This document shows, one piece after another, positions 2 to 54,647 of a stretch of DNA of 64,000 bases (its first letter is position 1; every line of letters starts with the position of its first letter). Made by a program: the position numbers and the translations under genes. Under the pieces are notes generated by a model. The model was not told where the DNA came from. It was given only the letters and a program-made list of their open reading frames with translations, and did no database searches. This DNA comes from Acidilobaceae archaeon (GTDB lineage: Archaea > Thermoproteota > Thermoprotei_A > Sulfolobales > Acidilobaceae): positions 9,304 to 73,303 of the forward strand of contig JBCNVO010000044.1 in the NCBI GenBank assembly GCA_039630105.1, written 5' to 3'.

Positions 2-1108
2 TACATAGAGGCAGCACTCGGCCTCCGCAGGTTCATAGACGAGGAGGGCAACCCGGTGGAGGAGGTGAAGGTACATTTGAGCCAGGAGTTGTTGCTGAGG
101 ATGTACGCCACTATGGTCAGGGCAAGGCTCCTGGACGAGTGGTTGCTCAAGATGCAGAGGGTGGGGAAGGTTGCCTTGCATGCTCCGAACGCTGGGCAGG
201 AGGCAATTGCTGGCGCTGCAATGGCCCTGAGGGAGGAGGACTGGCTCTTCCCTAGCTACAGGGAGCTCTCTGCCTACATAGCCAGGGGGATGAGCGAGGA
301 GGAGATATTGGACAGAGCCATGGCAAATGCGGACGATCTGCTTAGGGGGAGCGAGTTCGCTGTATATGGCAACAGGAAGTTCAACATAGTGCCTGCCCCC
401 GTTCCTGTGGGAACCCAGATACCCCTTGCTGTAGGCGCTGCCATATCAGCGAAGATCCTGGGTCACAAGGTGATAACTATGGTCATCTTCGGGGACGGCG
501 CCTCCTCAAGGGGAGACTTCCACTCGGGCATGAACTTCGCCGGAGTGTTCAAGGCCCCCGTCGTGTTCATTCTCCAGAACAACGGCTGGGCCATTTCTCT
601 CCCAGCTATGAGGCAGACTGCAGCGAAGACCCTGGCAGCCCGCGGGGTGGGCTACGGGGTGCCCGGGGTCAGGGTGGACGGGAACGACGTCATAGCTATG
701 TACGTTACTGCGCTCGAGGCCGCAGAGAGGGCGAGGACTGGGGAGGGGCCTACGCTAATAGAGGCCCTGACCTACAGGCTGGGGCCTCACACTACAGCAG
801 ACGATCCTGACAAATACAGGTCTAGGGAGGAGGTGAAGCTAATGGAGAGGCTCGATCCTATTGCCAGGTTCGGCAAGTACCTGAAGGGAAGGGGCATAAT
901 GAGTGAGAAGGAGGAGAGGGAGATCTGGAAGGAGTGGGGGGAAAAAATAGAGAAAGCGGTCAAGAGGAGCTACGAGAAGCCTCCCTTGCCCGTGGAGGTG
1001 ATCTTCGAGAACGTCTACTCCGAGCCCACCTGGAACCTGGAGGAGCAGGCGAAGGAGCTGAGGGAGTCTCTGAGGGTCACGGAGGAGCTGGGGATGAGGG
1101 TGGAGTGA
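2..1108 (+). CDS. 2-oxoacid dehydrogenase E1 component, alpha subunit (TPP-dependent); 5' end probably outside the window
   Basis: 350-aa ORF from GTG 56 with E1-alpha-like sequence (GDGASSRGDFHSGMNFAG, TYRLGPHTTADDP). The frame stays open to nt 2. The upstream in-frame residues (RRFIDEEGNPV) look like the E1-alpha N-terminus, so the gene may be 5'-partial. First gene of an E1a-E1b-E2-E3 string. Confidence 0.85.
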   Translation, partial: YIEAALGLRRFIDEEGNPVEEVKVHLSQELLLRMYATMVRARLLDEWLLKMQRVGKVALHAPNAGQEAIAGAAMALREEDWLFPSYRELSAYIARGMSEEEILDRAMANADDLLRGSEFAVYGNRKFNIVPAPVPVGTQIPLAVGAAISAKILGHKVITMVIFGDGASSRGDFHSGMNFAGVFKAPVVFILQNNGWAISLPAMRQTAAKTLAARGVGYGVPGVRVDGNDVIAMYVTALEAAERARTGEGPTLIEALTYRLGPHTTADDPDKYRSREEVKLMERLDPIARFGKYLKGRGIMSEKEEREIWKEWGEKIEKAVKRSYEKPPLPVEVIFENVYSEPTWNLEEQAKELRESLRVTEELGMRVE

Positions 1109-1109
1109 T

Positions 1110-2087
1110 ATGGCTGTCATGAACATGGTACAGGCTCTGAACAGCGCTCTCAGGGAGGAGATGAGGAGGGACAAGAGGGTCGTCGTGCTGGGAGAGGACG
1201 TGGGGAGGAGGGGCGGCGTCTTCCTCGTGACAGAGGGGCTCATCGACGAGTTCGGGCCTGAGAGGGTGATGGACACCCCTCTCACGGAGGGCGGCATTGT
1301 GGGAGTTGCAGTAGGGATGGCCCTATATGGTCTTAGGCCTGTGGCAGAGATACAGTTCATTGACTTCGTTTACGAGGCCTTTGACCAGATCGTGACCAAC
1401 TTGTCCAAGATAAGGAGGAGGACAGGTGGCACGTACTCTGCGCCAGTCGTGATCAGGGGCCCCTGCTGCGGAGGCGTGAAGGGAGGTATGTTCCACAGCC
1501 AGAGCAACGAGTCCTATTTCGCCCACACAGGAGGGCTGAAGGTAGTCATGCCCTCAAGGCCTTATGACGCGAAGGGCCTCCTCAAAGCCTCCATAAGGGG
1601 AGAGGACCCAGTGATCTTCCTGGAGCCAAAGATCTTGTACAGGGCGATAAGGGAGGAGGTGCCTGAGCAGGACTATACTGTGCCCCTCGGGGAGGCCAGG
1701 GTGGTCCAAGAGGGCTCCGACGTAACGCTCGTGACCTGGGGAGCCATGGTGTACAGGTCCCTGGAGGCAAGCAAGATAGCGAGGGCAAAGCACGGCTGGG
1801 AGGTGGAGGTCATAGACCTGAGGACCCTCCTCCCCTTCGACAGGGAGGCCATAATCGGGAGCCTGGAGAAGACAGGGAGGCTGGTGGTCGTGCACGAGGC
1901 CCCTAAGACCCTTGGGCTTGGCGCAGAGATAGCTGCTTACGTAGCAGAGAACGCCATAGAGCTCCTGAGGGCCCCCATAGCCAGGGTGGCGGGCTTCGAC
2001 GTGCCCTACCCTCTGGCTCACGAGAAGCTATACCTGCCAAACGAAGCCCGGATTTATATGGCGCTCTCCAAGGTGATGAGCTACTAG
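1110..2087 (+). CDS. 2-oxoacid dehydrogenase E1 component, beta subunit
   Basis: 325-aa ORF starting 2 nt after the E1-alpha stop. Transketolase-like pyrimidine-binding and C-terminal domains (DTPLTEGGIVGVAVGMALYGLRPVAEIQF, DLRTLLPFD). Confidence 0.9.
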   Translation: MAVMNMVQALNSALREEMRRDKRVVVLGEDVGRRGGVFLVTEGLIDEFGPERVMDTPLTEGGIVGVAVGMALYGLRPVAEIQFIDFVYEAFDQIVTNLSKIRRRTGGTYSAPVVIRGPCCGGVKGGMFHSQSNESYFAHTGGLKVVMPSRPYDAKGLLKASIRGEDPVIFLEPKILYRAIREEVPEQDYTVPLGEARVVQEGSDVTLVTWGAMVYRSLEASKIARAKHGWEVEVIDLRTLLPFDREAIIGSLEKTGRLVVVHEAPKTLGLGAEIAAYVAENAIELLRAPIARVAGFDVPYPLAHEKLYLPNEARIYMALSKVMSY

Positions 2088-3272
2088 GTGGTCCATGTGG
2101 AGGTCAGGTTACCTGACATAGGGGAGGGGCTTACAGAGGGGGAAATAGTAGAGTGGTTGGTCAAGGAAGGAGATAGGGTGAAGCAGTTTCAGCCCCTCGT
2201 TAAGGTGCTCACTGCGAAAGCAACTGTGGAGATACCTTCGCCCTTCGAGGGGGTGGTGAAGAGGCTCCTTGCAAGGCCAGGCGACGTGGTGAAGGTCGGA
2301 GAAGTCATAGCTGAGATTGCTAAAGAGGCAGAGCCTGTCGCAGAAGTGAAAGAGGAGAAAGCTCAGGTAGCCCTCATCAGGGCCCCGCCTCGCGTGAGGA
2401 AGCTGGCAAGGGAGCTGGGAGTAGACCTGGCACTGGTGAAGGGGACGGGGCCGGGAGGAGCTATCACTGAGGGCGACGTCGTGAAGGCAGCAGAGGAGAT
2501 GAAGAGAGCTGTCGCAAAGGTAGAGGAGAGGCCTGCAGCAGTAGCTCAGCCAGCTGTGCAGAGGGAGGAGAGGATAGCGCTGAGGGGCATAAAGAGGCTC
2601 ATGTCCTTAAAGATGGCAGAGGCAAAGGCGAAGATACCCCACGCTTACATAGCAGAGGAGGTGGACTTCACAGAGCTGACAAAGCTCCGCGAGAGCCTTA
2701 AGGAGGAGGCTGAGAGAAAGGGAGCAAAGCTCACGCTACTGGCGTTCATCGTGAAGGCTGCGACGAAGGCCTTGAAGAGCTACCCGCTCATGAACGCAAG
2801 CCTTGACGAGGGGAAGGGGGAGATAGTGGTCAAGAGGTTCTACAACATAGGGATCGCTGTGGACACGGAGGACGGCCTCGTCGTGCCTAATATAAAAGAT
2901 GCGGATAAGAAGGGGCTGTTCCAGATAGCGCGGGAAATTCAGGAGCTGTCCCAGAAGGCGAGGGAGGGGAAGCTCTCCCTCGAGGAGGTGAGCAACGGCA
3001 CCTTCAGCATAACGAACATAGGCTCTATTGGCACTGTTTTCGGCATGGCCGTGATCAACTACCCAGAGGCAGCAATCCTAGGCGTGCACAGGGTGCAGGA
3101 GCTCCCCAGGGCAGTAGACGGGAAGGTGGAGCTGAGGAAGATTGGCATCATTACCCTAAGCTTCGACCACAGGTTCATAGAGGGCGCTTATGCCACTAGG
3201 TTCCTGCTCCACCTCAAGCGCCTGCTAGAGAACCCGGTGCTAATAATGGCGCCAGAGGAGGAGTTTAAGTAG
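2088..3272 (+). CDS. 2-oxoacid dehydrogenase E2 component (dihydrolipoamide acyltransferase)
   Basis: GTG start directly after the E1-beta stop. N-terminal lipoyl domain (LVKVLTAKATVEIPSP), peripheral subunit-binding domain (PRVRKLARELGVDL), and catalytic domain ending in SFDHRFIEG. Confidence 0.9.
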   Translation: MVHVEVRLPDIGEGLTEGEIVEWLVKEGDRVKQFQPLVKVLTAKATVEIPSPFEGVVKRLLARPGDVVKVGEVIAEIAKEAEPVAEVKEEKAQVALIRAPPRVRKLARELGVDLALVKGTGPGGAITEGDVVKAAEEMKRAVAKVEERPAAVAQPAVQREERIALRGIKRLMSLKMAEAKAKIPHAYIAEEVDFTELTKLRESLKEEAERKGAKLTLLAFIVKAATKALKSYPLMNASLDEGKGEIVVKRFYNIGIAVDTEDGLVVPNIKDADKKGLFQIAREIQELSQKAREGKLSLEEVSNGTFSITNIGSIGTVFGMAVINYPEAAILGVHRVQELPRAVDGKVELRKIGIITLSFDHRFIEGAYATRFLLHLKRLLENPVLIMAPEEEFK

Positions 3273-3282
3273 GTGAGCTAGG

Positions 3283-4650
3283 GTGGAGAGGTACGATCTC
3301 GTCGTGATAGGAGGAGGGCCTGGCGGCTACCCTGCAGCCATCCGCGCCTCGCAGCTCGGGCTGAGGGTAGCGCTGGCGGAGCAGAGGAGGTTGGGGGGAG
3401 AGTGCACGAACTACGGCTGCATTCCCACCAAGTCCATGCTAAGGCCTGTGAACTCCCTCTACGAGCTCTCCAAGATGGGTTTCGTGAAGGGCTCCCCTGA
3501 GCTGGACTTCGCAGAGTACATGAGCTGGGTAGAGTCTGTTAAGGCGAAGATCTCAGAGAGCCTCGAGTCCCTCCTCAGGAGGTACGAAGTTGACATATTC
3601 GAGTCCAGGGCTAGGTTCAGCAATGGGGCAGTGGAGCTGGAGAGCGGCCCCTCCCTCAAGGCAGGCAAGGTGGTGATAGCAACAGGCACTGAGCCCGCCT
3701 CCCTGCAAGGCCTGGAGGCAGACGGCGCCGTCGTTCACGACAACAGGACCATACTGGGCCTGAGGAGGAAGCCCTCGAGAGTGCTGATAGTAGGGGCTGG
3801 ATACATTGGCGTGGAGTTCGCGGGCCTCTTCGCGAAGCTGGGCGCAGAGGTACACCTCGTAGAGGTCCTGGAGAGGCCTCTGCCTACTATGGACGAGGAC
3901 TTCTCCAAGCTCGTCTCTAGAAGGCTCTCCAGGCTCGGCGTAAAGATCTACACTTCTACTTACGTCAAGGAGGTGGAGAGGAGGGAGAGCTACCTGAGGG
4001 CAGGCTTAACGAGCGGGCTAAGCGTGGAGGCAGACCTGGCACTTGTGGCAGTGGGGAGGAAGCCTAACTCTGCAGGCCTCGGGCTGGAGAGGGCTGGCGT
4101 GAGGACAGACGGGAAGGGATATGTGGTGGTGGACGAGGGCATGAGGACCAGCAACCCCGACATATTCGCTGCTGGGGACGTAGCTGGGCCCCCGCTGCTA
4201 GCGCACAAGGCCTTCGCGCAGGGGATCGTAGCTGCGGAGAACGCTGCGGGCATGAGGTCCTTCTACGAGCCAAAAGTGGTCCCCTCCGTTATATTCTCAG
4301 ACCCAGAGATACTCAGCGTGGGCTTGACAGAGGCGGAGGCAAAGAGGGCTGGCTACGACGTGGGGGTTACGAAGCTACCTATAGGTGGAGTGGCGAGGGC
4401 GCTGATCGAGGACTCAGTAGACGGCTTCGTGAAGCTGGTTTACGAGAACGGCAGCAAGGTGATCTTGGGCATTCACATGGCAGGCCCTCACGCCTCAGAG
4501 CTGGCAGGGGAGGCGTCGCTAGCAATAGAGATGGGGGCCACGCTGGAGGACTTGGCCCTCACCATTCACCCCCACCCCACTGTCTCAGAGGCGCTCCAGG
4601 AGGCAGCAGAGCTAGCGCTAGGGAGGCCAAAACATTACTACAAAAAGTGA
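3283..4650 (+). CDS. lpd: dihydrolipoamide dehydrogenase (E3)
   Basis: 455 aa. FAD fingerprint VVIGGGPGG, redox-active disulfide GGECTNYGCIPTK, second dinucleotide fold VGAGYIGVE, C-terminal HPHPTVSE interface motif. Confidence 0.9.
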   Translation: MERYDLVVIGGGPGGYPAAIRASQLGLRVALAEQRRLGGECTNYGCIPTKSMLRPVNSLYELSKMGFVKGSPELDFAEYMSWVESVKAKISESLESLLRRYEVDIFESRARFSNGAVELESGPSLKAGKVVIATGTEPASLQGLEADGAVVHDNRTILGLRRKPSRVLIVGAGYIGVEFAGLFAKLGAEVHLVEVLERPLPTMDEDFSKLVSRRLSRLGVKIYTSTYVKEVERRESYLRAGLTSGLSVEADLALVAVGRKPNSAGLGLERAGVRTDGKGYVVVDEGMRTSNPDIFAAGDVAGPPLLAHKAFAQGIVAAENAAGMRSFYEPKVVPSVIFSDPEILSVGLTEAEAKRAGYDVGVTKLPIGGVARALIEDSVDGFVKLVYENGSKVILGIHMAGPHASELAGEASLAIEMGATLEDLALTIHPHPTVSEALQEAAELALGRPKHYYKK

Positions 4651-4663
4651 GGACTGGGGTGGC

Positions 4664-5083
4664 TTACTCTCCTCCTATCTCCTCGAGGTGCTCCAGGTAC
4701 CTCTTGTAGGCCGCAGCTATGTCCCTAACAGACAGTATGCCCTTTGCCTTGCCCTCCTCGTCCACTACTGGCAGATGCCTGATCCTCTTCTCTGTCATGA
4801 TTATCACAGCCTTAGAGAGGGCCTCTCCCTCGTGGATCGTCAGGGGCTCTTTCGTCATGACCTCCCCTATCCTAGCATTGAGGGACTTGCCCTCCGCCAC
4901 TACCCTCACTAGGTCCCTCTCAGTGAAGATGCCGAGGACCTTGCCCTCTGGGCTGACGACGATTATGCTGCTTATGCCCTCCTTGTACATTGTCTTCACA
5001 GCATCTAGCACTGTGGCAGTAGGCTGAACGACGATAGGAGGTTTCTTCATGACGTCCACAACCTTTACAGCTGCATAGCTCAT
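4664..5083 (-). CDS. CBS-domain pair protein
   Basis: 139 aa with two CBS repeats (VMKKPPIVVQP...GIFTERDLVR and VMTKEPLTIHE...GILSVRDI). Confidence 0.8.
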   Translation of the reverse strand: MSYAAVKVVDVMKKPPIVVQPTATVLDAVKTMYKEGISSIIVVSPEGKVLGIFTERDLVRVVAEGKSLNARIGEVMTKEPLTIHEGEALSKAVIIMTEKRIRHLPVVDEEGKAKGILSVRDIAAAYKRYLEHLEEIGGE

Positions 5084-5137: not shown

Positions 5138-5587
5138 TCATATTGGAACGAAATATAATATGTCGCTCAGCATCCCTCTTCTCTCCTCTCTTGCTCTGAA
5201 AACGGGCCTTGTCTTGAGCCCCACGAAGACGTTCTCTGCTTTCAGATAGTGAACTATGCCTCCCTGAGCTCCCTCAGGCCTGAGGAGCGCTATGACCTGC
5301 GGTTCCCCCATCTTCTCCTCCCTTAAGTCTCTATATATTACAGTGTAGGATTCTACTACCCAAGGCCCCTGAAGCTCCACTAGCTCCCCCTTGCTGTGAT
5401 CAGGACAATAGGGACGTGCTGGTACCAACACCTTATCGCTGCACCTTATGCCCAGCAGCTTGCCCTCCAGCAAAGCCTCTGCGACCCTTGCACCAGTCAC
5501 GCCAGGCGGGTATACGTACTTCTCTACCTCCATCTCCCCCTCCACGTAGAGCACGTCCCCATGACTGACCCTCTTGTTCATCCTCAC
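5138..5587 (-). CDS. DUF35 OB-fold protein with a degenerate Zn-ribbon
   Basis: The ORF track gives 5138-5602. I prefer the in-frame GTG at 5587, which forms a GTGA overlap with the upstream stop. The ribbon region reads RCSDK...YCPDH (only two Cys) and is followed by an OB-fold-like C-terminus. Last gene of the thiolase-fold/DUF35 operon. Confidence 0.65.
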   Translation of the reverse strand: MRMNKRVSHGDVLYVEGEMEVEKYVYPPGVTGARVAEALLEGKLLGIRCSDKVLVPARPYCPDHSKGELVELQGPWVVESYTVIYRDLREEKMGEPQVIALLRPEGAQGGIVHYLKAENVFVGLKTRPVFRAREERRGMLSDILYFVPI

Positions 5588-6111
5588 CACCTCTCGAAAC
5601 ACTCTATGTCAGTTATGCTCCCCCTCCTCTCCCCCTCTGGCCTCCAGCGGGGCCTCACCCTTGCGCCAAATATCTTGCCTTCCTTCACCTCCTCCTCGCC
5701 CGCCCCGCAGAGCCTGTGGAAAATGCCTGGGAAGTCGGGCTCGTCCCCCTTGTAGCCAGGGGCGTCCAGCCTGATAATGACAACTATCTCAGGCTCCCTC
5801 AGCCTAGCCCTCCTCGCAGAGATGTAGCTCACGGAGACCGTCTCCACCCTTCCAGTGCCCGGCAGCTCCACCCAGTCTCCAGCTGGCGAGTGGCAGTACT
5901 CGCAGAACTCGCGGGGCGGCACCATGATCCTTCTGCAGGAGCTGCAGGCCCTCCCCAAGATCTTCCCCTCCTTGAGGCCCTTGAGGAAGAGGGAGAGGGC
6001 TTGTCCGGCGCTGTAGACGTACTTTGCCACAGGCTTGTATTCTATGACTCCTGCCATCCTCCTGAGCTCCTCCTCCCTCACGTACCTCCCAGGGATCTCC
6101 ACCTTGATCAC
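5584..6111 (-). CDS. DUF35 OB-fold / Zn-ribbon protein (acyl-CoA-associated)
   Basis: Complete CxxC...CxxC ribbon (ACSSCRRIMVPPREFCEYCHS) followed by an OB-fold segment. The ORF track start is 6156. The GTG at 6111 gives a GTGA overlap with the stop of the upstream thiolase-fold gene. Confidence 0.75.
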   Translation of the reverse strand: MIKVEIPGRYVREEELRRMAGVIEYKPVAKYVYSAGQALSLFLKGLKEGKILGRACSSCRRIMVPPREFCEYCHSPAGDWVELPGTGRVETVSVSYISARRARLREPEIVVIIRLDAPGYKGDEPDFPGIFHRLCGAGEEEVKEGKIFGARVRPRWRPEGERRGSITDIECFERW

Positions 6112-7295
6112 CTCGACAGCACTATGACCGTGCCTGCCTGCATCAGGTCTCCCCAAGAGTTTGCCACTCCCTTGTGCACAGGCCTCTTCACCTGCCTCGC
6201 CCCAGCCTCGTACCTCAGCTGCCAGAAGAGCTCTGCAGTCTTCATAACTCCAGAGGCTGCTATGGGGTTGCCCATGCCTAGCAGCCCTCCGCTGGGAGAG
6301 ACTGGAAGCTCCCCGCTCCTCTCAAAGTAGCCCTCCTTGAGCAGCTTGGGGGCCTCGCACTTCCTAGCCAGCATGAGCCCCTCCAGGTTGTGGAGCTCCT
6401 TGTAGTCGAAGGGGTCGTGGGGCTCCGCCAGGTCTATCTCCTTCCAGGGCCTCTCTATGCCAGCCATCTTGTAGGCCATCCTAGCTGCCTGTTCCACGTA
6501 CCTCGGGTAGGAGAGGTCTCTGTTGTACCAGAAGGAGCTGTCCAGAGTAAAGCCCACTCCCTCCACCCACACTGGCGTGTCAGTGATCCTCCTGGCAACG
6601 TTCTCCCTTGCCAGCACGAGCGCTGCTGCCCCGTCGCTCACGGGGCTTATGTCCAGGAGCTGCACAGGCCAGACCAGCGTCTCGCTCCTGAGCACGTCCT
6701 CCACAGTTATGTCTGCTGCAGCCTGCGCATGAGGGTTGTCCAAGGCGTTTCTCTTGTTCTTGACAGAAACTAGGGCTATGTCCTCCTTCCCTACCCTGCA
6801 CTCGTGCATGTACTTAGCCATCTCGAGCGCAAATATCCAGATGAGGTTAGGCCCTAGGGGCCTCTCGAGCACAGGGTGCCAGATGTAGGCGAAGACGCCC
6901 TGAGGGTGGGGGTAAGCGTGACTCATCTTCTCCTCCCCCACTGCAAGCACAGTCTTGCACAGACCACTTGCCGCGTGCCACCATGCAGTTATTGGTACCA
7001 TTACCCCAGTGCCCCCTCCCACTGCCACTCTGATCACTGGCTTGGAGAAGCCCCCTGCTCCCTCAGCCAGGTACTCTCCCTTCATGTGCACGCCGTCGAA
7101 AGCATCTACAGCAGAGCCGATCACTATGCAGTCTATGTCCTTTAGCGTGAGGCCTGCAGAGTCGAGAGCTCTGCTGGCTGCCTCCCAGGCGAGCTCCTGT
7201 GGGGTCTCGAGGAGCCTCCTGGCGAAGAGGGTAAGGCCTGCCCCTACTATCGCCACCCTGTCCTTCACGTGTAGGTTCGTCCTCATCTCCCTCAC
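6108..7295 (-). CDS. thiolase-fold (SCP-x / archaeal thiolase-like) protein lacking the canonical Cys and His
   Basis: 395 aa, alignable by eye to archaeal thiolases (ASG..VLAVGEEKMS, ISPVSDGAAALVL, PVSPSGGLLG). The nucleophile position reads RVAVGGGTG (expected xxACASG), and the GHPxGATG box reads GMGNPIAASG. The GTG start forms a GTGA overlap with the upstream gene. Confidence 0.8.
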   Translation of the reverse strand: MREMRTNLHVKDRVAIVGAGLTLFARRLLETPQELAWEAASRALDSAGLTLKDIDCIVIGSAVDAFDGVHMKGEYLAEGAGGFSKPVIRVAVGGGTGVMVPITAWWHAASGLCKTVLAVGEEKMSHAYPHPQGVFAYIWHPVLERPLGPNLIWIFALEMAKYMHECRVGKEDIALVSVKNKRNALDNPHAQAAADITVEDVLRSETLVWPVQLLDISPVSDGAAALVLARENVARRITDTPVWVEGVGFTLDSSFWYNRDLSYPRYVEQAARMAYKMAGIERPWKEIDLAEPHDPFDYKELHNLEGLMLARKCEAPKLLKEGYFERSGELPVSPSGGLLGMGNPIAASGVMKTAELFWQLRYEAGARQVKRPVHKGVANSWGDLMQAGTVIVLSR

Positions 7296-8437
7296 CTCGA
7301 GACGACTGCGACAGCAGAGGTGTAGGTGGGAACTCCCCTCCAGCTTGCAACGATGGCCCTCTCCCCCTCCACCTGCGTTCCCCCTGCCTCCCCCCTGAGC
7401 TGCAGAACAGCTTCCAGCAGCCTCACCAAACCCGTGGCTTCGAAAGATATGCCCAGGGAGAGGGTGCCCCCGCTTGGGTTCACTGGGTAGCTGCCCCCTG
7501 CATAGAAGTGGCCTGCCTCAAGCAGCCTGTGGGCCCCCTCTGGAGCTAAGCCCAGCTCCTCCAGCGAGAGGAGCTCCATGAAGCTGAACCTGTCCTCCAC
7601 CTCTGCGAAGTCAGTCTGCTTTCGCGGGTCACTTATGCCCGCCTGCCTGTAAGCCTCCCTAGCTGCGAGCTTCATAGAGGGCATCCTCCCCCACTCGTGC
7701 CACTCCATGGCACCGCTCCCCACCTCAGTGGCCCACCAGATCCCCTCGAGCCACACGGGCTCTCCCCCCAGCTCCCTTACCTTCTCCTCCGAGGCGATCA
7801 CGAAGTTTATCGCCACGTCTGTGTACCCAGCTATCTCGTGCGAGGTGAGGGGGTAGATGATCGGCTCTGAGCCCAGTACGTCCTCCAGAGTTATCTTTGC
7901 AGAGTGGGGAGCCCTCGGGTTCCTGAGGCCCCTGTTCCTGTTCTTCACTGCCACTAGGGCGAAGTGCTCCCTCCTTGCCCCGCTCCTCCTCATGTAAGCC
8001 ACTGCGTCGAGCCCTGCAGGGAAGAAGGGGTTGCCAGGCCTGAGGGCTCTTATCTGAGGATCTAGGGCAAGCTCGTAGACCTCTTGAAGAGTCTTGATAT
8101 CACTGGGCTTTGCATGGGCCTCTACTGCCACCACCTCTGCCATGCCGCTCCTTATCATCATGTAGGCCTGACCTATGCACTGCAAGCCGTCCCCAGCGAC
8201 AGTCATAGTAGGCCTCATCACTCCCCCTATCGGGTCTGGCGCAAACTCGTCGCTTATGGCTATGCCCTCCCAGAAGTCCTCCTGGCACGAGACGAAGACG
8301 TCTATGTCCTCCCTTGCGTCCACTCCTGCGTCATCGTAAGCCCTTACTGAGGCCTCGTACATCATCTCAGCAAAGGACAGCTCCGGGACCGAAGGCCTGA
8401 AGCCCTGCCACCCCACGCCTAGGAGAGCTACCCTCAA
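7292..8437 (-). CDS. thiolase-fold protein paralogue, also lacking the canonical Cys and His
   Basis: 381 aa with a TTG start. Thiolase-like N and C halves ([12 protein letters not shown]...QLRGEAG). The nucleophile region reads TVAGDGLQC with no Cys at the aligned position. The His box reads LGISFEATG. Confidence 0.75.
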
Positions 8438-8468: not shown

Positions 8469-8475
8469 TTATATA
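8469..8475. promoter_or_regulatory. TATA-like box (TTATATA) in a divergent promoter region
   Basis: This is the only A/T-rich element in the 68-nt gap. It lies about 30 nt from the TTG start of the NUDIX gene (8506) and about 32 nt from the TTG start of the thiolase-fold operon (8437). Confidence 0.45.
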
Positions 8476-9240: not shown

Positions 9241-11198
9241 AACTCCCTCACTACCTCCCCCATCAGAGGGTCGGGCCTGTAGCCGCCTAGCCTCTCCAGC
9301 TCCTCCTTAAAGCGCTCTCCCTTCAGGTGGGAGAGCAGTTTCCTCACTGCTTCCTTCCCCAGCTTCTCCTTTGGAATGAGGAAGTCGTACCTCTCCCAGC
9401 CAAGGCTCACGAAGTCCAAGTCGTATATCCTTGCAGCAGCCCTTATGGCAAGTCCCACGTCAGCCTTGCCTTGGGACACAGCTGCAGCCACTGCAGTGTG
9501 GGTCCTCACCTCGTAACTGTAGCCCTCAAGGGAGGAGGTCAGCTCCTCCAAGCTCAGCCCTCTCCTCTTTGCTAACTCCCTCAGCCTAGAGTCTAGCAGG
9601 AACCTGGTGCCAGAGCCCCTGTTCCTGTTAACCAGCCTTAGCCTCAGGAGGTCCTCTACGTCCCTCACCCCCATAGGGTTCCCTCTCTGCACGACCAGCC
9701 CTTGCTCGCGCAAGTACCCCCTCACGAGCACCACTCCCCTTGCTCCGTACTTCTCGAGGACGGGCACGTTGTACTCGCCGCTCTCCTCGTCCACTATGTG
9801 CAGCCCTGCAACGTCTGCCTCCCCCCTCACCGCGGACCTCATCCCCTCGAGGGAGCCCACGTTTATGGTCTTCGCGCGAATGCCTGAGATAGAGAGGAGC
9901 CTGTCCAAGGCTATGTCGTGGCTCCCCACGACGTACAGCTCTGCAGGGGAGTACTCGTGGGAGAAGAGCGTTACCTCTACCTCCTCCCCCTCCTGCAGGT
10001 ACTCTGCAGTCTCGGGCACCTGGATGAAGCCGTCGGCCTGAGCGAGCACTTTTATGGCCCCCGACTCTGCAGAGAGGGGGTAGGCAACAACGCCTTTCCC
10101 CGTGTCTATGAGGCTGACTGGGTAGAGCCCTCTCCTCCCCCTTGCCCCCTCCGCCCTCACTGCCAGCCTAGCTTTCAACTTCTGCTCCCTCTCCTCGAGA
10201 CACAACATCTTGAGGATCACTGGCTTCACGATCAGGCTGAATATCATGAGCGCAGAGCTGGGATAGCCTGGGAGCCCTACGAGCACCTTGCCTCCCCTCG
10301 ACAAGGCCAGAACAGTGGGCTTGCCCGGCTTGACCTTCAGGCCGTGGGCTATGACGCCCGGCGGGCCCATCTCAGCGAAAACTTTGTATATCATGTCTGT
10401 AGGCCCCGCAGAGGTGCCGCCGGAGACTATGACCATGTCGTAGCGAGCCTCTGCCTCTCTCAGGGTCTTCCTCATCTCTTCCATATCGTCCCTCACTATC
10501 CCTAGCAGGTGGGGCTCTGCGCCTAGCTTGAGCAGGGAGGAGTACACAGTGTAGCTGTTTATGTCGTAGATCTTCCCCACGCTGAGGGGCTCGCCTGGGG
10601 GCACAAGCTCGTCTCCAGTGGAGATCACTGCTACCCTAGGCCTTCTGAAGACTGGCACGTCCCTTACTCCAAGGGCTGCGAGGACCCCTATCTCCCTCTC
10701 CCCCAGTCTCGTGCACCTCCTCAGCACCATCTCGCCAGCTGCTATGTCGCCGCCTGCGCTGAGCACGTTCTCCCCTGGCACAGCTGGCCTGTAGAGCAGC
10801 ACCTTCTCCCCTGACCTCTTGGTGAACTCCACCATTGCCACAGCGTTTGCCCCCCCAGGGAGGAAGGCGCCAGTGGAGATCTCCACAGCTTCCCCTCTCC
10901 CTACCCTGATCTCTGCCCTGCTGCCAGGGGAGATGGAGCCCACCACCCTCAGCTCCACTGGGGAGAGCTCGCTGGCGCCGAACGTGTCCTCAGCCCTGAG
11001 CGCATAGCCGTCCACAGTGGACCTGTCGAAGTGGGGCACGTCTATCGCTGCGTAGACTTCCTCTGAAAGCACCCTGCCGAAGGCCCTCTCCAGGCTCACC
11101 CTCTCTGTCCCGAGAGGTCGCAGGCTGGCTGACCTCTCCAGAGCCCCTAGGGCTTCTTCGGGGGTGAGGAGCTTGTGGTATATTACCCTCTCCTTCAT
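9237..11198 (-). CDS. moeA: molybdopterin molybdo/tungsto-transferase MoeA fused to a C-terminal periplasmic-binding-protein-like domain
   Basis: 653 aa. MoeA hallmarks (DVPHFDRSTVDGYAL, VISTGDELV, VIVSGGTSAGPTD, KPGKP). An extra ~240 aa resembles the PBP-like/ModA-type fold (VVGSHD..., NRNRGSGTR...). Confidence 0.85.
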   Translation of the reverse strand: MKERVIYHKLLTPEEALGALERSASLRPLGTERVSLERAFGRVLSEEVYAAIDVPHFDRSTVDGYALRAEDTFGASELSPVELRVVGSISPGSRAEIRVGRGEAVEISTGAFLPGGANAVAMVEFTKRSGEKVLLYRPAVPGENVLSAGGDIAAGEMVLRRCTRLGEREIGVLAALGVRDVPVFRRPRVAVISTGDELVPPGEPLSVGKIYDINSYTVYSSLLKLGAEPHLLGIVRDDMEEMRKTLREAEARYDMVIVSGGTSAGPTDMIYKVFAEMGPPGVIAHGLKVKPGKPTVLALSRGGKVLVGLPGYPSSALMIFSLIVKPVILKMLCLEEREQKLKARLAVRAEGARGRRGLYPVSLIDTGKGVVAYPLSAESGAIKVLAQADGFIQVPETAEYLQEGEEVEVTLFSHEYSPAELYVVGSHDIALDRLLSISGIRAKTINVGSLEGMRSAVRGEADVAGLHIVDEESGEYNVPVLEKYGARGVVLVRGYLREQGLVVQRGNPMGVRDVEDLLRLRLVNRNRGSGTRFLLDSRLRELAKRRGLSLEELTSSLEGYSYEVRTHTAVAAAVSQGKADVGLAIRAAARIYDLDFVSLGWERYDFLIPKEKLGKEAVRKLLSHLKGERFKEELERLGGYRPDPLMGEVVREF

Positions 11199-53200: not shown

Positions 53201-53463
53201 GGGAGCTAGTGAGGAAGATAGAGGTGAAGGGGCACATGGGGGATGAGCTAGTGGCGGAGCTCACTGAGAACGAAATGAGGGAGGCGGAGAGGTCAGGGAA
53301 AAAGTACTGGATATACATAGTGACTGGGGCATGCCTGGCAGAGAACTGCAGGGAGTTGGAGATTCATGAGTTCCCGGATCCCCTCAACATGATGGAGGTA
53401 AAGGAATTGACGAGGTTGGTAAAGAGGTACGAGCTGAGGCCCAAGAGCTCCCCAGATCAATAA
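50218..53463 (+). CDS. SNF2-family (RapA/HepA-like) SF2 helicase fused to a C-terminal DUF3883-like PD-(D/E)xK nuclease-fold domain
   Basis: 1081 aa. Helicase motifs DEIGLGKT (aa 79-86), VVDEAH (187-192), LSATP (223-227), IIIFTEF (475-481), STDVASEGVNLQ (530-541) and QRVGRIWRLGQ (560-570). C-terminus: CYDVES...RKIEVKG...YWIYIVT. The central part has visibly lower G+C than the neighbours. The start is uncertain (in-frame GTGs at 50260 and 50305). Confidence 0.8.
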   Translation: MSLLCLPAYNWCPSVSSPERKPARDPYPLVKELAERFKEHPFIIPFYDMTDKDIEVFTHQLEALALAAARSPLRFFLADEIGLGKTITAISLMKLLTRDRRRALILVPKILMRQWCRELLRMGIKDSKYLKRTGKGLSACSCEEDSICINLHNVSDVLVASMDLAKKKDVHKELGKLLREKNWNLIVVDEAHRLSSHPRATERFSMIGEKLVKESPQANVIFLSATPHRGYQDDYVNRLWLLDPALDAERLRKETDDQVLKVFYSGVHRALLLRRTRRDVNQYEGKKIFTNAHFQSIPVKTQELEEQFMEKLREALKNLVKFANKFEKENKPHARAMQLLAVTLFKRASSSPKAAFLTLTRMKDKRESAERAAKKENLDEEIKNFVRKVEGEVFPYEDIEWDEGEEELEESSIYDQIAEKGMTSIYAMNEREGGRIIENIIQLKGILEELEKGDSKLRELIKLIEKERNSGASKIIIFTEFKDTLDYLRERLPWGDNVLTLSSEEARSSGKLRDITQKFANDDKYWLLISTDVASEGVNLQVANVLINYEVPWSMVKLVQRVGRIWRLGQKRDVKIYFMFLDTKSDRAAWEKVYEKVLEAKRAGIRTELSEEALLRFQSLTSRLTSHDDMSSEFKLILTYLEGGEEELERSVDKSLGDLDRDIEFAKRAIMRESMDPGEVQELMYRAFGFPTSEELKNSMEKLTKLIGGYEEGNPVKVLYSKFGTSPRDSSTRKDFLHVRSSADIGKVWLTEMIVKTRDGKILYRQPLAITEGKILKGRDLIEMVAKAMGGKHEIRREHEISEERERLAREREAVKSQLEGEVRELLKREVEELLEPLRRYGENMTNVRGSSLTMSEEPDVEIAEPFAVIEHGEIEEEEAIDVFEELKKMITREPMSPEVLGERLMELRERGAKAESIFRAFETMVERMGDLGRALKESFGSKKEIDESLKREIERKAIEAVMKYEREHGREPRDVSLEPCSEERCYDVESWQGGELVRKIEVKGHMGDELVAELTENEMREAERSGKKYWIYIVTGACLAENCRELEIHEFPDPLNMMEVKELTRLVKRYELRPKSSPDQ

Positions 53464-53468
53464 CCTTC

Positions 53469-53476
53469 TTTATTAA
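53469..53476 (+). promoter_or_regulatory. TATA-like box (TTTATTAA) upstream of the acyl-CoA dehydrogenase gene
   Basis: Lies 31 nt upstream of the ATG at 53508, directly after the helicase stop. Confidence 0.5.
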
Positions 53477-53507
53477 TGCCCAGCCTGCCTCCCTTGGGAA
53501 GAGATCT

Positions 53508-54647
53508 ATGGGCGGGGACATAGAGTCCATAAGGGCGAGCACGAGGGAGTTTGCAGAGAGGAGGCTGAGAGGAGTTGCGAAGCTCATAGATGAGAGGAAC
53601 GCTGTGCCAGAGGAGATCCTGAGGGAGGTAGCAGAGATGGGCTATTTCTCGCTCAAGGTGCCAGAGGAGTACGGCGGTCCAGGCCTTTCTGTTCTGGAGA
53701 GCGCAGTAGCGATAGAGGAGCTCTCCAGGGTCTCGAGCGCCGTGGGCATTATGGCCACTGTGAGCGGGACCATGGTGCCCTACCCGATCGCAAGGTACGG
53801 CACCCCTGAGCAGAAGGAGAGGTACTTGAGCATCCTTGCCAAGGGCGGCATTGGAGCTTTCGCCCTCTCTGAGCCCTGTTGCGGGAGCGACGCTGCTTCG
53901 ATAGCCACGAGGGCTACGCTAGAGGGGGACGAGATAGTCATAGAGGGCACAAAGACCTACATAACGAATGCTCCCTACGCAGACTTCTTCCTCGTGGCAG
54001 TGAGGACAGGGAGGGAGGAGGACAGGCACAAGGGCATATCCCTCGTGATCCTCGACAGATCTCCTTGCATGAAGATGTCCAAGCTCGAGATGATGGGCTA
54101 CAGGGGGAGCGGCACCTCAGAGCTCAGGCTGGAGGAGTGCAGGACGAGCAAGGAGAACCTGATAGGGGAGCTGAACACGGGCTTCAAGAAGATCATGATG
54201 ACGCTGAACGAAGGTAGAGTGACTACTGCGGCAACGGGGCTAGGGATAATGCAGGCTGCCTTCGAGGAGGCCTTCAGCTATGCTAGGCAGAGGACCAGCA
54301 TGGGGGTGCCCATAATAGAGCACCAGATGGTGCAGCACCTCCTCGCAGAGATGAACGTCCTACTCGAGACCTCAAGGCTCATAGTTTACGAGGCTGCAAG
54401 GAGGCTGGACGCAGAGGACCCTGAGATCGCTAGGTACGCCAGCATAGCGAAGCTGTTCACAGCCAGCAGGGGGGTGGACTTGGTCAGGATGGCCATGCAG
54501 GTCATGGGAGGGGTGGGCTACAGCAAGGACAGCACCGTGGAGAGGCTCTACAGGGACATAAAGATGATAGAGATAGGCGATGGAACTAACGAGATACAGC
54601 GTATGGTCATAGTGAGGAGCCTGCTGGGGAAGATAAGGGCTGACTAA
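53508..54647 (+). CDS. acyl-CoA dehydrogenase
   Basis: 379 aa. Blocks ALSEPCCGSDAAS, TKTYITNAP and IGDGTNEIQRMVI. Confidence 0.9.
   Translation: MGGDIESIRASTREFAERRLRGVAKLIDERNAVPEEILREVAEMGYFSLKVPEEYGGPGLSVLESAVAIEELSRVSSAVGIMATVSGTMVPYPIARYGTPEQKERYLSILAKGGIGAFALSEPCCGSDAASIATRATLEGDEIVIEGTKTYITNAPYADFFLVAVRTGREEDRHKGISLVILDRSPCMKMSKLEMMGYRGSGTSELRLEECRTSKENLIGELNTGFKKIMMTLNEGRVTTAATGLGIMQAAFEEAFSYARQRTSMGVPIIEHQMVQHLLAEMNVLLETSRLIVYEAARRLDAEDPEIARYASIAKLFTASRGVDLVRMAMQVMGGVGYSKDSTVERLYRDIKMIEIGDGTNEIQRMVIVRSLLGKIRAD

Follow-up and report, generated by a model that had tools for sequence, protein, structure and literature searches.

In each of the solved complexes 6ESQ, 6OK1, 5M3K, 7PXP and 9MYR, a DUF35 protein is bound to a thiolase-fold enzyme. 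Two of these complexes, Ltp2-ChsH2 from Thermomonospora curvata (6OK1) and Sal-Shy from Comamonas testosteroni (9MYR), are steroid side-chain retro-aldolases. The HDCF motif of SCP2-thiolase reads YDHF in Ltp2, YDCY in Sal and YDCF in trypanosomal SLP, and the Tyr of this motif is the catalytic base that deprotonates the beta-hydroxyl in the Ltp2 and Sal retro-aldolases; Sal carries Gly at the position of the thiolase nucleophile, and a spacing of 50 residues separates Tyr294 from Tyr344 in Ltp2 and Tyr302 from Gln352 in Sal (PMC12329534). In Sulfolobus acidocaldarius, the ketothiolase/DUF35 pair Saci_1121/Saci_1120 needs co-expression and recruits further acyl-coenzyme A (acyl-CoA) enzymes (bioRxiv 10.1101/2024.07.05.601840). 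In this study, we analysed positions 5138-8437, minus strand, of a 64,000-nucleotide stretch of an Acidilobaceae archaeon genome (contig JBCNVO010000044.1; the whole stretch is called the window here), where two thiolase-fold genes, B and A, are followed by two DUF35 genes, DUF35-1 and DUF35-2. The results showed that this is a real, conserved and mis-annotated archaeal four-gene set, a variant of the thiolase-fold/DUF35 theme. Judged by their alignments, A and B are without the Cys/Cys/His set of thiolases and unable to act as thiolases, and we tentatively read the four genes as an uncharacterised heteromeric C-C lyase.

An earlier note, made from the letters of this DNA alone, had listed four minus-strand open reading frames in the order B-A-DUF35-DUF35, and all of them are present. 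Gene B (7292..8437) encodes 381 residues from a TTG start and was assigned as a thiolase-fold paralogue by Pfam and NCBIfam. Its paralogue, gene A (6108..7286), encodes 392 residues from ATG 7286; the open reading frame 6108-7295 gives 395 residues if GTG 7295 is used as the start, and residue numbers of A follow the 395-residue numbering throughout. DUF35-1 (5584..6111), with a start at GTG 6111 or GTG 6102, consists of a zinc ribbon (CSSC...CEYC) and an oligonucleotide/oligosaccharide-binding (OB) fold with an insertion, and DUF35-2 (5138..5581) starts at ATG 5581 within a full frame of 5138-5602. Pfam matched Thiolase_C_1 in both A and B, Thiolase_N in A, and zf-ChsH2 and OB_ChsH2_C in both small proteins. 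By NCBIfam equivalog models, B belongs to PRK06066 (NF004722; 555 bits vs a cut-off of 516) and A to PRK06065 (NF004721; 742 bits, precisely 741.8, vs a cut-off of 455); both are name-only families, 'thiolase domain-containing protein', without tested function.

The residues at the catalytic positions were assigned by HMMER pairwise alignments to the solved SCP-x-type thiolases 7YVY (the P. furiosus thiolase), 4YZO, 7PXP (benzoylsuccinyl-CoA thiolase) and 6HSJ (zebrafish SCP2-thiolase), and were cross-checked with MAFFT, in which both proteins were aligned to a canonical thiolase of the same genome. This thiolase (C14:8038-9252) is an SCP-x-type thiolase with CATG, HDCF and GHP and is followed by a DUF35 gene; the genome also encodes a type-II thiolase with all catalytic residues present (C8:19706-20917). 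The HMMER and MAFFT alignments concurred for both proteins. At the position of the nucleophilic Cys, A has Gly94 (VGGGTG vs AACASG) and B has Ala81 (VAGDG vs NCSTG); the HDCF/HDAF motif reads HDPF in A (His293, Pro295) and EDRF in B, and the GHP motif reads GNP in A (Asn343) and GIS in B. These alignments confirmed the Cys-to-Gly and His-to-Asn changes that the earlier note had read by eye in A, as well as the missing in-register Cys and the His-to-Ile change in B. Its catalytic comparison was right on the losses of the Cys and the GHP His and had overlooked the third motif, HDCF. No Cys or His of either protein lands on a thiolase catalytic position: the cysteines of A (56, 113, 166 and 313) and of B (51 and 87) all lie out of the catalytic loop register, and the nucleophilic Cys is missing from all 29 A and all 28 B orthologues. 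The fold itself is clear. AlphaFold2 models of both proteins are confident thiolase folds (predicted local distance difference test 84 for A and 88 for B), and Foldseek gave template-modelling (TM) scores of about 0.8-0.9 for both against archaeal, SCP2-type and DUF35-bound structures (0.82-0.89 to 6ET9, 7YVY and 6HSP), with 0.85-0.89 for A to 6ET9/7YVY and 0.85-0.89 for B to thiolases. Set against an SCP-x thiolase, A and B have the fold and are without the nucleophile Cys, the HDCF Cys and the GHP His.

The substituted positions are conserved very differently in the two proteins. Among A orthologues, Gly94 and Asn343 are invariant and Pro295 is conserved, and the motif equivalent to HDCF carries Tyr (EPYDPFDYKEL; YDPF) in 28 of 29. 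The window's A reads HDPF instead, as do the two closest database clusters, P0006 and P0007 (83% identity). Its His293 codon, CAC (window 6417-6419, minus strand), reflects a single-base substitution (TAC/TAT to CAC) that has become fixed in a small clade, and since His is also found in P0006 and P0007, the Tyr-to-His change is real and lineage-specific. Asn343 lies exactly 50 residues after position 293. The active-site loops of A contain the near-invariant motifs GG[AG]TG, EEKMS, Y/H-DPF, PSGG, GNPIAAAG and WGDLMQ. Two of them are polar and specific to the family, EEKMS in place of VEKM and WGDLMQ at the C-terminal oxyanion-hole loop, and these are candidates for the missing catalytic acid. 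In the 28 B orthologues the three catalytic positions vary (A/S/T/P; E/D/N/S/T; I/V/Y/W/F/N), and B has conserved motifs of its own (QEDFWEG, GD[GS], [AS]H[AG]KPSD, LEA[ST]G and SWRGxPT). Because A is fixed at the substituted positions while B varies at all of them, A is probably the catalytic subunit, and B is probably a structural or substrate-shaping pseudo-enzyme partner. Two strongly conserved loops, A 129-146 and B 54-73, are of low confidence in the monomer models and might fit buried interfaces.

We surveyed an even sample of 251 Thermoproteota genomes, calling A above its curated cut-off. A was present in 55 genomes, with a B-type gene immediately upstream in 55/55; only 36 of these B genes passed their own cut-off, a consequence of the faster divergence of B. 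Of 14 named control genomes, S. acidocaldarius alone had A above the cut-off, and there the counterpart of the unit is Saci_2230-2233. The order B-A-DUF35-DUF35 was found in about 30 of 35 fetched loci, including P. aerophilum (AE009441.1) and a metagenome-assembled genome of Saccharolobus; the exceptions were three loci that have A and B only, two of them Vulcanisaeta-like, a locus whose sole DUF35 gene is a hybrid, and a basal divergent pair (G165). The earlier note had called for a check of phylogenetic co-occurrence, and these counts bear out that the four genes are one conserved unit. The identity of A is 58-83% across Desulfurococcales, Caldisphaera, Saccharolobus, Pyrobaculum, Thermoproteus, Vulcanisaeta and Sulfolobaceae-type genomes, and its mean column identity over 32 sequences is 76%. 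In a maximum-likelihood tree, A and B were each monophyletic (100/99 and 100/100). Support for joining the two as sisters was weaker (84/74), the canonical and mevalonate-cluster thiolases stood apart from them (96/88), and the G165 pair branched at their base; B branches were several times longer than A branches. The tree and the strict pairing together point to an ancient duplication whose products have been kept together since.

Two of the exceptional loci deserve description. In a Sulfolobaceae genome (L006, G030:C14, 2669-3118), A is followed by a single 149-residue DUF35 protein whose beginning resembles DUF35-1 and whose end resembles DUF35-2, as though a deletion had fused the two genes. 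The basal G165 locus (L024, G165:C4, 6660-9492) has two Cys-less thiolase-fold genes and one DUF35 gene and branches below the A/B split; its downstream gene has YNPF and NP, and its upstream gene has CETS and NP.

Our leading, still tentative reading is that the four genes encode a heteromeric C-C lyase of the retro-aldol type, acting in short- or branched-chain acyl-CoA catabolism. A, B, DUF35-1 and DUF35-2 would form one complex, in which two anciently duplicated, Cys-less SCP-x-type subunits are each probably capped by their own DUF35 protein. We infer a complex because solved DUF35 proteins bind thiolase-fold enzymes and because the crenarchaeal ketothiolase/DUF35 pair needed co-expression. 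The active site of A would keep the framework for a CoA thioester (the DGAAA, PSGG and G-x-P...G loops) and bind a 3-hydroxyacyl-CoA, and the Tyr, or His in this lineage, would take the hydroxyl proton. The C2-C3 bond would then break to give an aldehyde or ketone and an enolate, which would be stabilised by conserved loop amides and Asn343 and protonated by some acid, so that the end products would be the aldehyde or ketone and acetyl- or propionyl-CoA. B and the two DUF35 proteins would shape the site and may dock partner enzymes. The acyl-CoAs would come from a 2-oxoacid dehydrogenase or ferredoxin oxidoreductase, and the acyl-CoA dehydrogenase encoded nearby would desaturate them.

Several observations weigh against a lyase of this kind. 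The catalytic acid of the aldolases is absent from A, where Sal Cys304 corresponds to Pro295 and Ltp2 Tyr344 to Asn343. The signature Tyr is His in the window's A, P0006 and P0007, and the residue that carries the aldolase analogy is therefore missing in this protein. In sequence, A matches archaeal thiolases (E 1e-42) much better than it does Ltp2 (5e-20) or Sal (2e-18), so any aldolase function would be convergent. The four-gene unit holds no hydratase, and a MaoC-type dehydratase was found neither in this 90%-complete genome nor in more than 5 of the 13 genomes of the window's GTDB family; a MaoC hydratase as an obligatory partner was rejected on these counts. Finally, the gene neighbourhood is conserved but generic, and the nearest acyl-CoA dehydrogenase in the window is 45 kb away.

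Four other explanations were weighed. That A and B are ordinary acetoacetyl-CoA or 3-ketoacyl-CoA thiolases whose residue losses are an alignment artefact accords with an unambiguous fold and with the database names of such genes ('acetyl-CoA acetyltransferase', 'thiolase domain-containing protein'). This explanation is close to refuted, as several independent alignments show the nucleophile replaced by Gly in A and Ala in B, and the His by Asn in A and Ile in B, none of the four cysteines of A or the two of B is in the catalytic register, and no orthologue regains the catalytic residues; misalignment was ruled out by HMMER against several thiolases of known structure together with MAFFT against the genome's own thiolase. 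Least credible of all is that the genes are decaying paralogues, or incipient pseudogenes, of real thiolase/DUF35 pairs. The lost catalytic residues, the fast evolution of B and DUF35-2 and the degenerate ribbon of DUF35-2 might suggest such decay, but conservation refutes it: the frames are intact in all 55 genomes save one, which has one in-frame stop, A exceeds most enzymes in conservation, the unit is retained in a 1.1-Mb genome, and it is transcribed and regulated in S. acidocaldarius.

The earlier note had left an aldolase/lyase and a scaffold side by side, and both are still live options. As a non-catalytic scaffold, A, B and the DUF35 proteins would organise other acyl-CoA enzymes (an acyl-CoA dehydrogenase, a hydratase, a dehydrogenase and a real thiolase) into a channelling assembly, much as the S. 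acidocaldarius ketothiolase/DUF35 pair Saci_1121/1120 recruits a reductase and a dehydratase (Saci_1104, Saci_1085) that are encoded elsewhere (bioRxiv 10.1101/2024.07.05.601840). Both proteins are without any thiolase catalytic residue, the conserved loops A 129-146 and B 54-73 are poorly modelled as monomers, as expected of interfaces, and the thiolase associated with 3-hydroxy-3-methylglutaryl-CoA (HMG-CoA) synthase in this genome is also without Cys, so that Cys-less thiolase-fold partners recur in the lineage. Even so, the near-invariant residues of A sit exactly at the active-site loops, as is typical of a working pocket, and a phylum-wide mean column identity of 76% is high for a protein that is purely a scaffold; we regard this explanation as unlikely. 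Much the same weight goes to some other Cys-independent chemistry, such as decarboxylation of (methyl)malonyl- or 3-carboxyacyl-CoA, hydration or isomerisation of enoyl-CoA, or an aldol or Claisen-type synthesis running in the biosynthetic direction. Trypanosoma brucei SLP, with YDCF (Tyr-Asp-x-Phe), slowly decarboxylates malonyl-CoA (PMC12329534); in A the proton donors of the aldolases are absent, and conserved acidic residues unique to it (EEKM, WGD) could support other acid-base chemistry, while a unit without a hydratase might itself accept enoyl-CoA. Against such chemistry stand the very low rate of the SLP decarboxylase, which the same authors suggest to be an aldolase (PMC12329534), and the lack of a carboxyltransferase to make carboxylated acyl-CoAs in the window's GTDB family (0/13 genomes).

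The two DUF35 proteins differ in their ribbons, and the intact CxxC...CxxC of DUF35-1 and the degenerate ribbon of DUF35-2 described in the earlier note were both found again. DUF35-1 matched both Pfam domains above their cut-offs (PF12172, 41.9 bits; PF01796, 43.5 bits); DUF35-2 scored 25.5 bits for PF12172 (cut-off 23.2) and 17.4 bits, below the cut-off, for the OB domain. The closest solved relative of both is 3IRB (S. solfataricus SSO2064), which DUF35-2 matches over residues 13-132 (E 1e-14). The N-terminus encoded at a Saccharolobus-type locus (L001) is near-identical, and SSO2064 is thus the DUF35-2 orthologue. The C4 ribbon of DUF35-1 is kept in 19/19 orthologues. DUF35-2 has two of the four Cys left (RCSD-K...YCPDH). 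Across lineages, it has C4 in Sulfolobaceae and several other families and three Cys in Thermoproteaceae; the two-Cys form occurs only in the window's GTDB family, which includes Aeropyrum. Asp or His may substitute for the lost Cys ligands in DUF35-2, or zinc may be lost; the DUF35 domain of Shy has a Cys3His zinc site (PMC12329534). The two-Cys pattern (C-x-D...C-P-[DEH]) is found in three of the four DUF35 proteins of this genome, and only DUF35-1 keeps C4. The other two carriers lie by the canonical thiolase (C14:~9290-9779) and in the mevalonate cluster (C41:5108-5512), which makes the pattern a lineage trait, not an operon-specific one; a tie between the degenerate ribbon and the function of the operon was accordingly rejected, and the pattern suggests that zinc binding has been lost or altered throughout the Aeropyrum-containing family.

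The earlier note had read all three gene junctions as GTGA overlaps of start and stop. At 7292-7295, 6108-6111 and 5584-5587 the upstream TGA indeed shares bases with an in-frame GTG, so the reading is literally available at each; obligatory 4-nt overlaps were rejected, as the recorded gene call and the orthologue N-termini favour ATG 7286 and ATG 5581, which lie downstream. The recorded protein for A (P0005) begins MRTNLHVK, that is, at ATG 7286, the N-termini of A orthologues match this start, and those of DUF35-2 orthologues match ATG 5581. A GAGGTGA element lies across the stop of B (7292..7298, minus strand), 5 nt before ATG 7286 and Shine-Dalgarno-like; another lies across the stop of A (6108..6114, minus strand) and precedes the GTG start or starts of DUF35-1; and GAGGTGGTGAGG, a near copy of GAGGTGA, lies across the stop of DUF35-1 (5582..5593, minus strand), 2 nt before ATG 5581. 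The favoured starts therefore probably lie 2-5 nt past each stop, the successive spacers being 5 nt, 5 nt (or an overlap) and 2 nt. GAGGTGA matches the consensus archaeal Shine-Dalgarno sequence, which is set by the 3' end of 16S rRNA; a motif search of the assembly did not find that 3' end. The window has 52 GAGGTGA sites vs 16.8 +/- 4.2 expected, and the 1.1-Mb genome has 684. The three-fold excess fits a Shine-Dalgarno element and agrees with the idea that this organism relies heavily on internal starts led by such elements. Relatives in the same GTDB family have spacers of 8-25 nt with GGTG or GGAGG motifs, and the Pyrobaculum junctions are ATGA overlaps. What stands of the earlier claim is the tight gene packing with probably coupled translation, in which GAGGTGA would serve as the Shine-Dalgarno element.

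Upstream of the unit, a TATA-box-like element, TATATAA (8469..8475, minus strand), lies 32-38 nt before the TTG start of B and is the presumed promoter of the operon. Downstream of DUF35-2, on the same strand, is a CBS-domain gene (4664-5083), followed by an E1alpha-E1beta-E2-E3 2-oxoacid dehydrogenase operon in convergent orientation (2..4650, plus strand). The adjacency to this operon that the earlier note had pointed out is real and recurs in four other loci. Neighbours were counted from open reading frames clustered from 23 loci (22 fetched, plus the window's stretch of contig C39). An acyl-CoA dehydrogenase gene adjoins the unit in 13 loci, an ACS/PrpE-like AMP-forming ligase gene is nearby in 11, and 2-oxoacid dehydrogenase E1alpha/E1beta genes adjoin it in 5, namely the window and L022, L023, L029 and L030, which come from two other GTDB families. 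In Sulfolobaceae loci the neighbour is a 2-oxoacid:ferredoxin oxidoreductase. The acyl-CoA dehydrogenase gene overlaps the end of DUF35-2 in P. aerophilum; in Saccharolobus and S. acidocaldarius its position is just upstream of B. The flanking dehydrogenases and ligases match only generic short-chain models, below curated cut-offs, and no ACS-like ligase was found in the window's 90%-complete genome.

The window's contig is rich in genes of acyl-CoA oxidation. The window's acyl-CoA dehydrogenase gene (~53370-54647, plus strand) is the best match in this genome to the dehydrogenases that flank the unit elsewhere, and just past the end of the window (C39:73311-75368, minus strand) is a gene for a 685-residue fusion resembling enoyl-CoA hydratase and 3-hydroxyacyl-CoA dehydrogenase. 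In two loci from two other families (L016, 9302-10916; L018, 8422-10001), a canonical thiolase with its own DUF35 gene divergently adjoins the Cys-less unit; these thiolases have CASS/CGSS, HDCF and GHP. The vicinity of L016 also holds a methylmalonyl-CoA-mutase-like gene and a gene resembling KAS III or type III polyketide synthase.

For S. acidocaldarius, Saci_2230-2233 have been treated as an operon (PMC6746942), Saci_2230-2235 respond jointly to growth on xylose (bioRxiv 10.1101/2021.07.28.454237), and under nutrient excess Saci_2232-2235 go up together with other genes of lipid metabolism (PMC11486757). In the literature on SSO2061-2064, Saci_2230-2236, ST0096/4YZO and PRK06065/6, we found only expression data and annotation, and no characterisation.

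Two absences mark the metabolic setting of the window's lineage. The acyl-CoA carboxyltransferase domain (PF01039) was found in none of the 13 genomes of the window's GTDB family, which is apparently without all biotin-dependent acyl-CoA carboxylases. A canonical HMG-CoA lyase above cut-off was found in none of the 61 genomes of the window's order, and the window's own genome has no HMGL-like match of any kind. We considered the unit as an HMG-CoA lyase analogue in the canonical leucine route because of its 2-oxoacid dehydrogenase, acyl-CoA dehydrogenase, ACS-like ligase and thiolase neighbours. This candidate is disfavoured, since without a carboxyltransferase the carboxylase-dependent route to HMG-CoA is unavailable in the family; the order is also without a canonical HMG-CoA lyase, so this rejection is not decisive. 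Together, the two absences make the standard leucine route seem unavailable, despite the presence of a 2-oxoacid dehydrogenase and an acyl-CoA dehydrogenase.

A more specific form of the lyase reading, to which we give only a small chance, is that the complex is a carboxylase-independent lyase for tertiary 3-hydroxy-3-methylacyl-CoAs. Such compounds cannot be oxidised to 3-keto compounds; Ltp2 solves a problem of this type for steroids, and the complex would mirror its handling of a tertiary alcohol. In the leucine variant, a branched-chain 2-oxoacid dehydrogenase or ferredoxin oxidoreductase would give isovaleryl-CoA, which the acyl-CoA dehydrogenase would convert to 3-methylcrotonyl-CoA; hydration would yield 3-hydroxyisovaleryl-CoA, and retro-aldol cleavage by A/B/DUF35 would release acetone and acetyl-CoA. 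In the isoprenoid variant, 3-methyl-branched acyl-CoAs from isoprenoid lipids would be cleaved to a methyl ketone and acetyl-CoA. Specific to the window are His in place of Tyr in A, a DUF35-2 with only two Cys, the 2-oxoacid dehydrogenase operon beside the unit and the family-wide lack of a carboxyltransferase.

The unit is annotated as acetyl-CoA acetyltransferases across Sulfolobus, Aeropyrum, Pyrobaculum, Vulcanisaeta and many uncultured Thermoproteota, and, as a consequence of this mis-annotation, metabolic reconstructions and counts of 'thiolase/DUF35 pairs' include enzymes unable to be thiolases. If A is a retro-aldolase, aldolase chemistry arose independently in the archaeal thiolase fold. 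The heteromeric lyase proposed here would then be a new architecture, a catalytic subunit with a pseudo-enzyme paralogue and two distinct DUF35 clamps, and would fill an unassigned step of archaeal short- or branched-chain acyl-CoA catabolism; in the form acting on tertiary substrates, it would represent a previously unknown route by which archaea break down leucine or isoprenoid chains. For biocatalysis, too, thermostable C-C lyases that use CoA thioesters are of interest. In S. acidocaldarius (Saci_2230-2233), genetics and homologous co-expression are available for thiolase/DUF35 pairs, so the question is directly testable.

Compared with the described systems, the archaeal thiolase/HMG-CoA synthase/DUF35 complex is the best structural match of both models (TM 0.88-0.89), and it too joins two different thiolase-superfamily enzymes via DUF35. 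Its thiolase has the Cys/His set and its partner is HMG-CoA synthase, whereas in the A/B unit both partners are of the SCP-x type and without that set, and DUF35 is present as two distinct proteins. No HMG-CoA synthase gene is present at the A/B locus; that of this genome lies in a mevalonate cluster on another contig (C41:3872-7881), in the order HMG-CoA synthase, thiolase-like, DUF35, HMG-CoA reductase. The 'thiolase' of this cluster is without any cysteine, with Glu at the nucleophile position (VEAGEASG vs IEAACASG in 7YVY), and keeps HDSF and GHP. In 30 genomes of the order (L036-L064), the nucleophile position of the mevalonate-cluster thiolase is Cys, Glu or Asp depending on the lineage, and the Glu forms are one well-supported clade; S. 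tokodaii ST0096 (4YZO) has Ser at this position. Either the thiolase bound to HMG-CoA synthase has turned into a scaffold, or a carboxylate has taken over as nucleophile. A correlation of the A/B unit with the Cys-less mevalonate-cluster thiolase was rejected, as genomes without A also carry the Glu type.

PhlABC (5M3K) and MucABC (9VBO) likewise combine an active and an inactive thiolase-superfamily subunit with DUF35 (PMC2954200). They differ from the archaeal unit in that PhlC keeps the catalytic Cys, PhlA is KAS III-like and not of the SCP-x type, and both complexes have one DUF35 type and carry out Friedel-Crafts acyl transfer on phenols. The Saci_1121/Saci_1120 pair, the core of a fatty acid synthase complex in archaea, is also a crenarchaeal thiolase-fold/DUF35 pair; Saci_1121 is an active thiolase, and the A/B unit, Saci_2230-2233, is unmentioned in the main text of the report on that complex (bioRxiv 10.1101/2024.07.05.601840). 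A possible analogue, likened by description only, is the Ltp3/Ltp4 pair, two adjacent thiolase-like paralogues without thiolase function, which, unlike the archaeal unit, are bacterial and sterol-specific. Ltp3 and Ltp4 have been proposed to act jointly as an aldol-lyase on a branched acyl-CoA, and to our knowledge they have no accompanying pair of DUF35 genes. According to Wilbrink et al. 2012 (cited in PMC10398937), these adjacent actinobacterial genes are essential for degradation of C24-branched sterol side chains.

The Ltp2-ChsH2 and Sal-Shy retro-aldolases share with the archaeal unit an SCP-x-type thiolase fold accompanied by DUF35, the replacement of the nucleophilic Cys by Gly in A, a YDPF motif in family A comparable with YDHF/YDCY, a non-His residue 50 positions later (Asn343, cf. 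Tyr344/Gln352) and a setting after an acyl-CoA dehydrogenase step. Gly at the nucleophile is invariant in A, whereas B has Ala, Ser, Thr or Pro; the motif Tyr is present in the A family (28/29) and not in the window's A. A is without the proton donors of the two aldolases (Sal Cys304, Ltp2 Tyr344), its two DUF35 partners are free-standing proteins with no fused MaoC hydratase, the unit has a further thiolase-fold subunit that is divergent, and the host, an archaeon, has no steroid metabolism. Against the NCBIfam lipid-transfer-protein model PRK07855, A scored 115 bits (cut-off 469), and A lies outside the Ltp2/Sal clade. The earlier note's view that the locus matches exactly neither the thiolase/HMG-CoA synthase/DUF35 complex nor Ltp2-ChsH2 thus holds; by analogy, the unit would resemble Ltp2-ChsH2 and Sal-Shy most in its working, without being a member of their clade.

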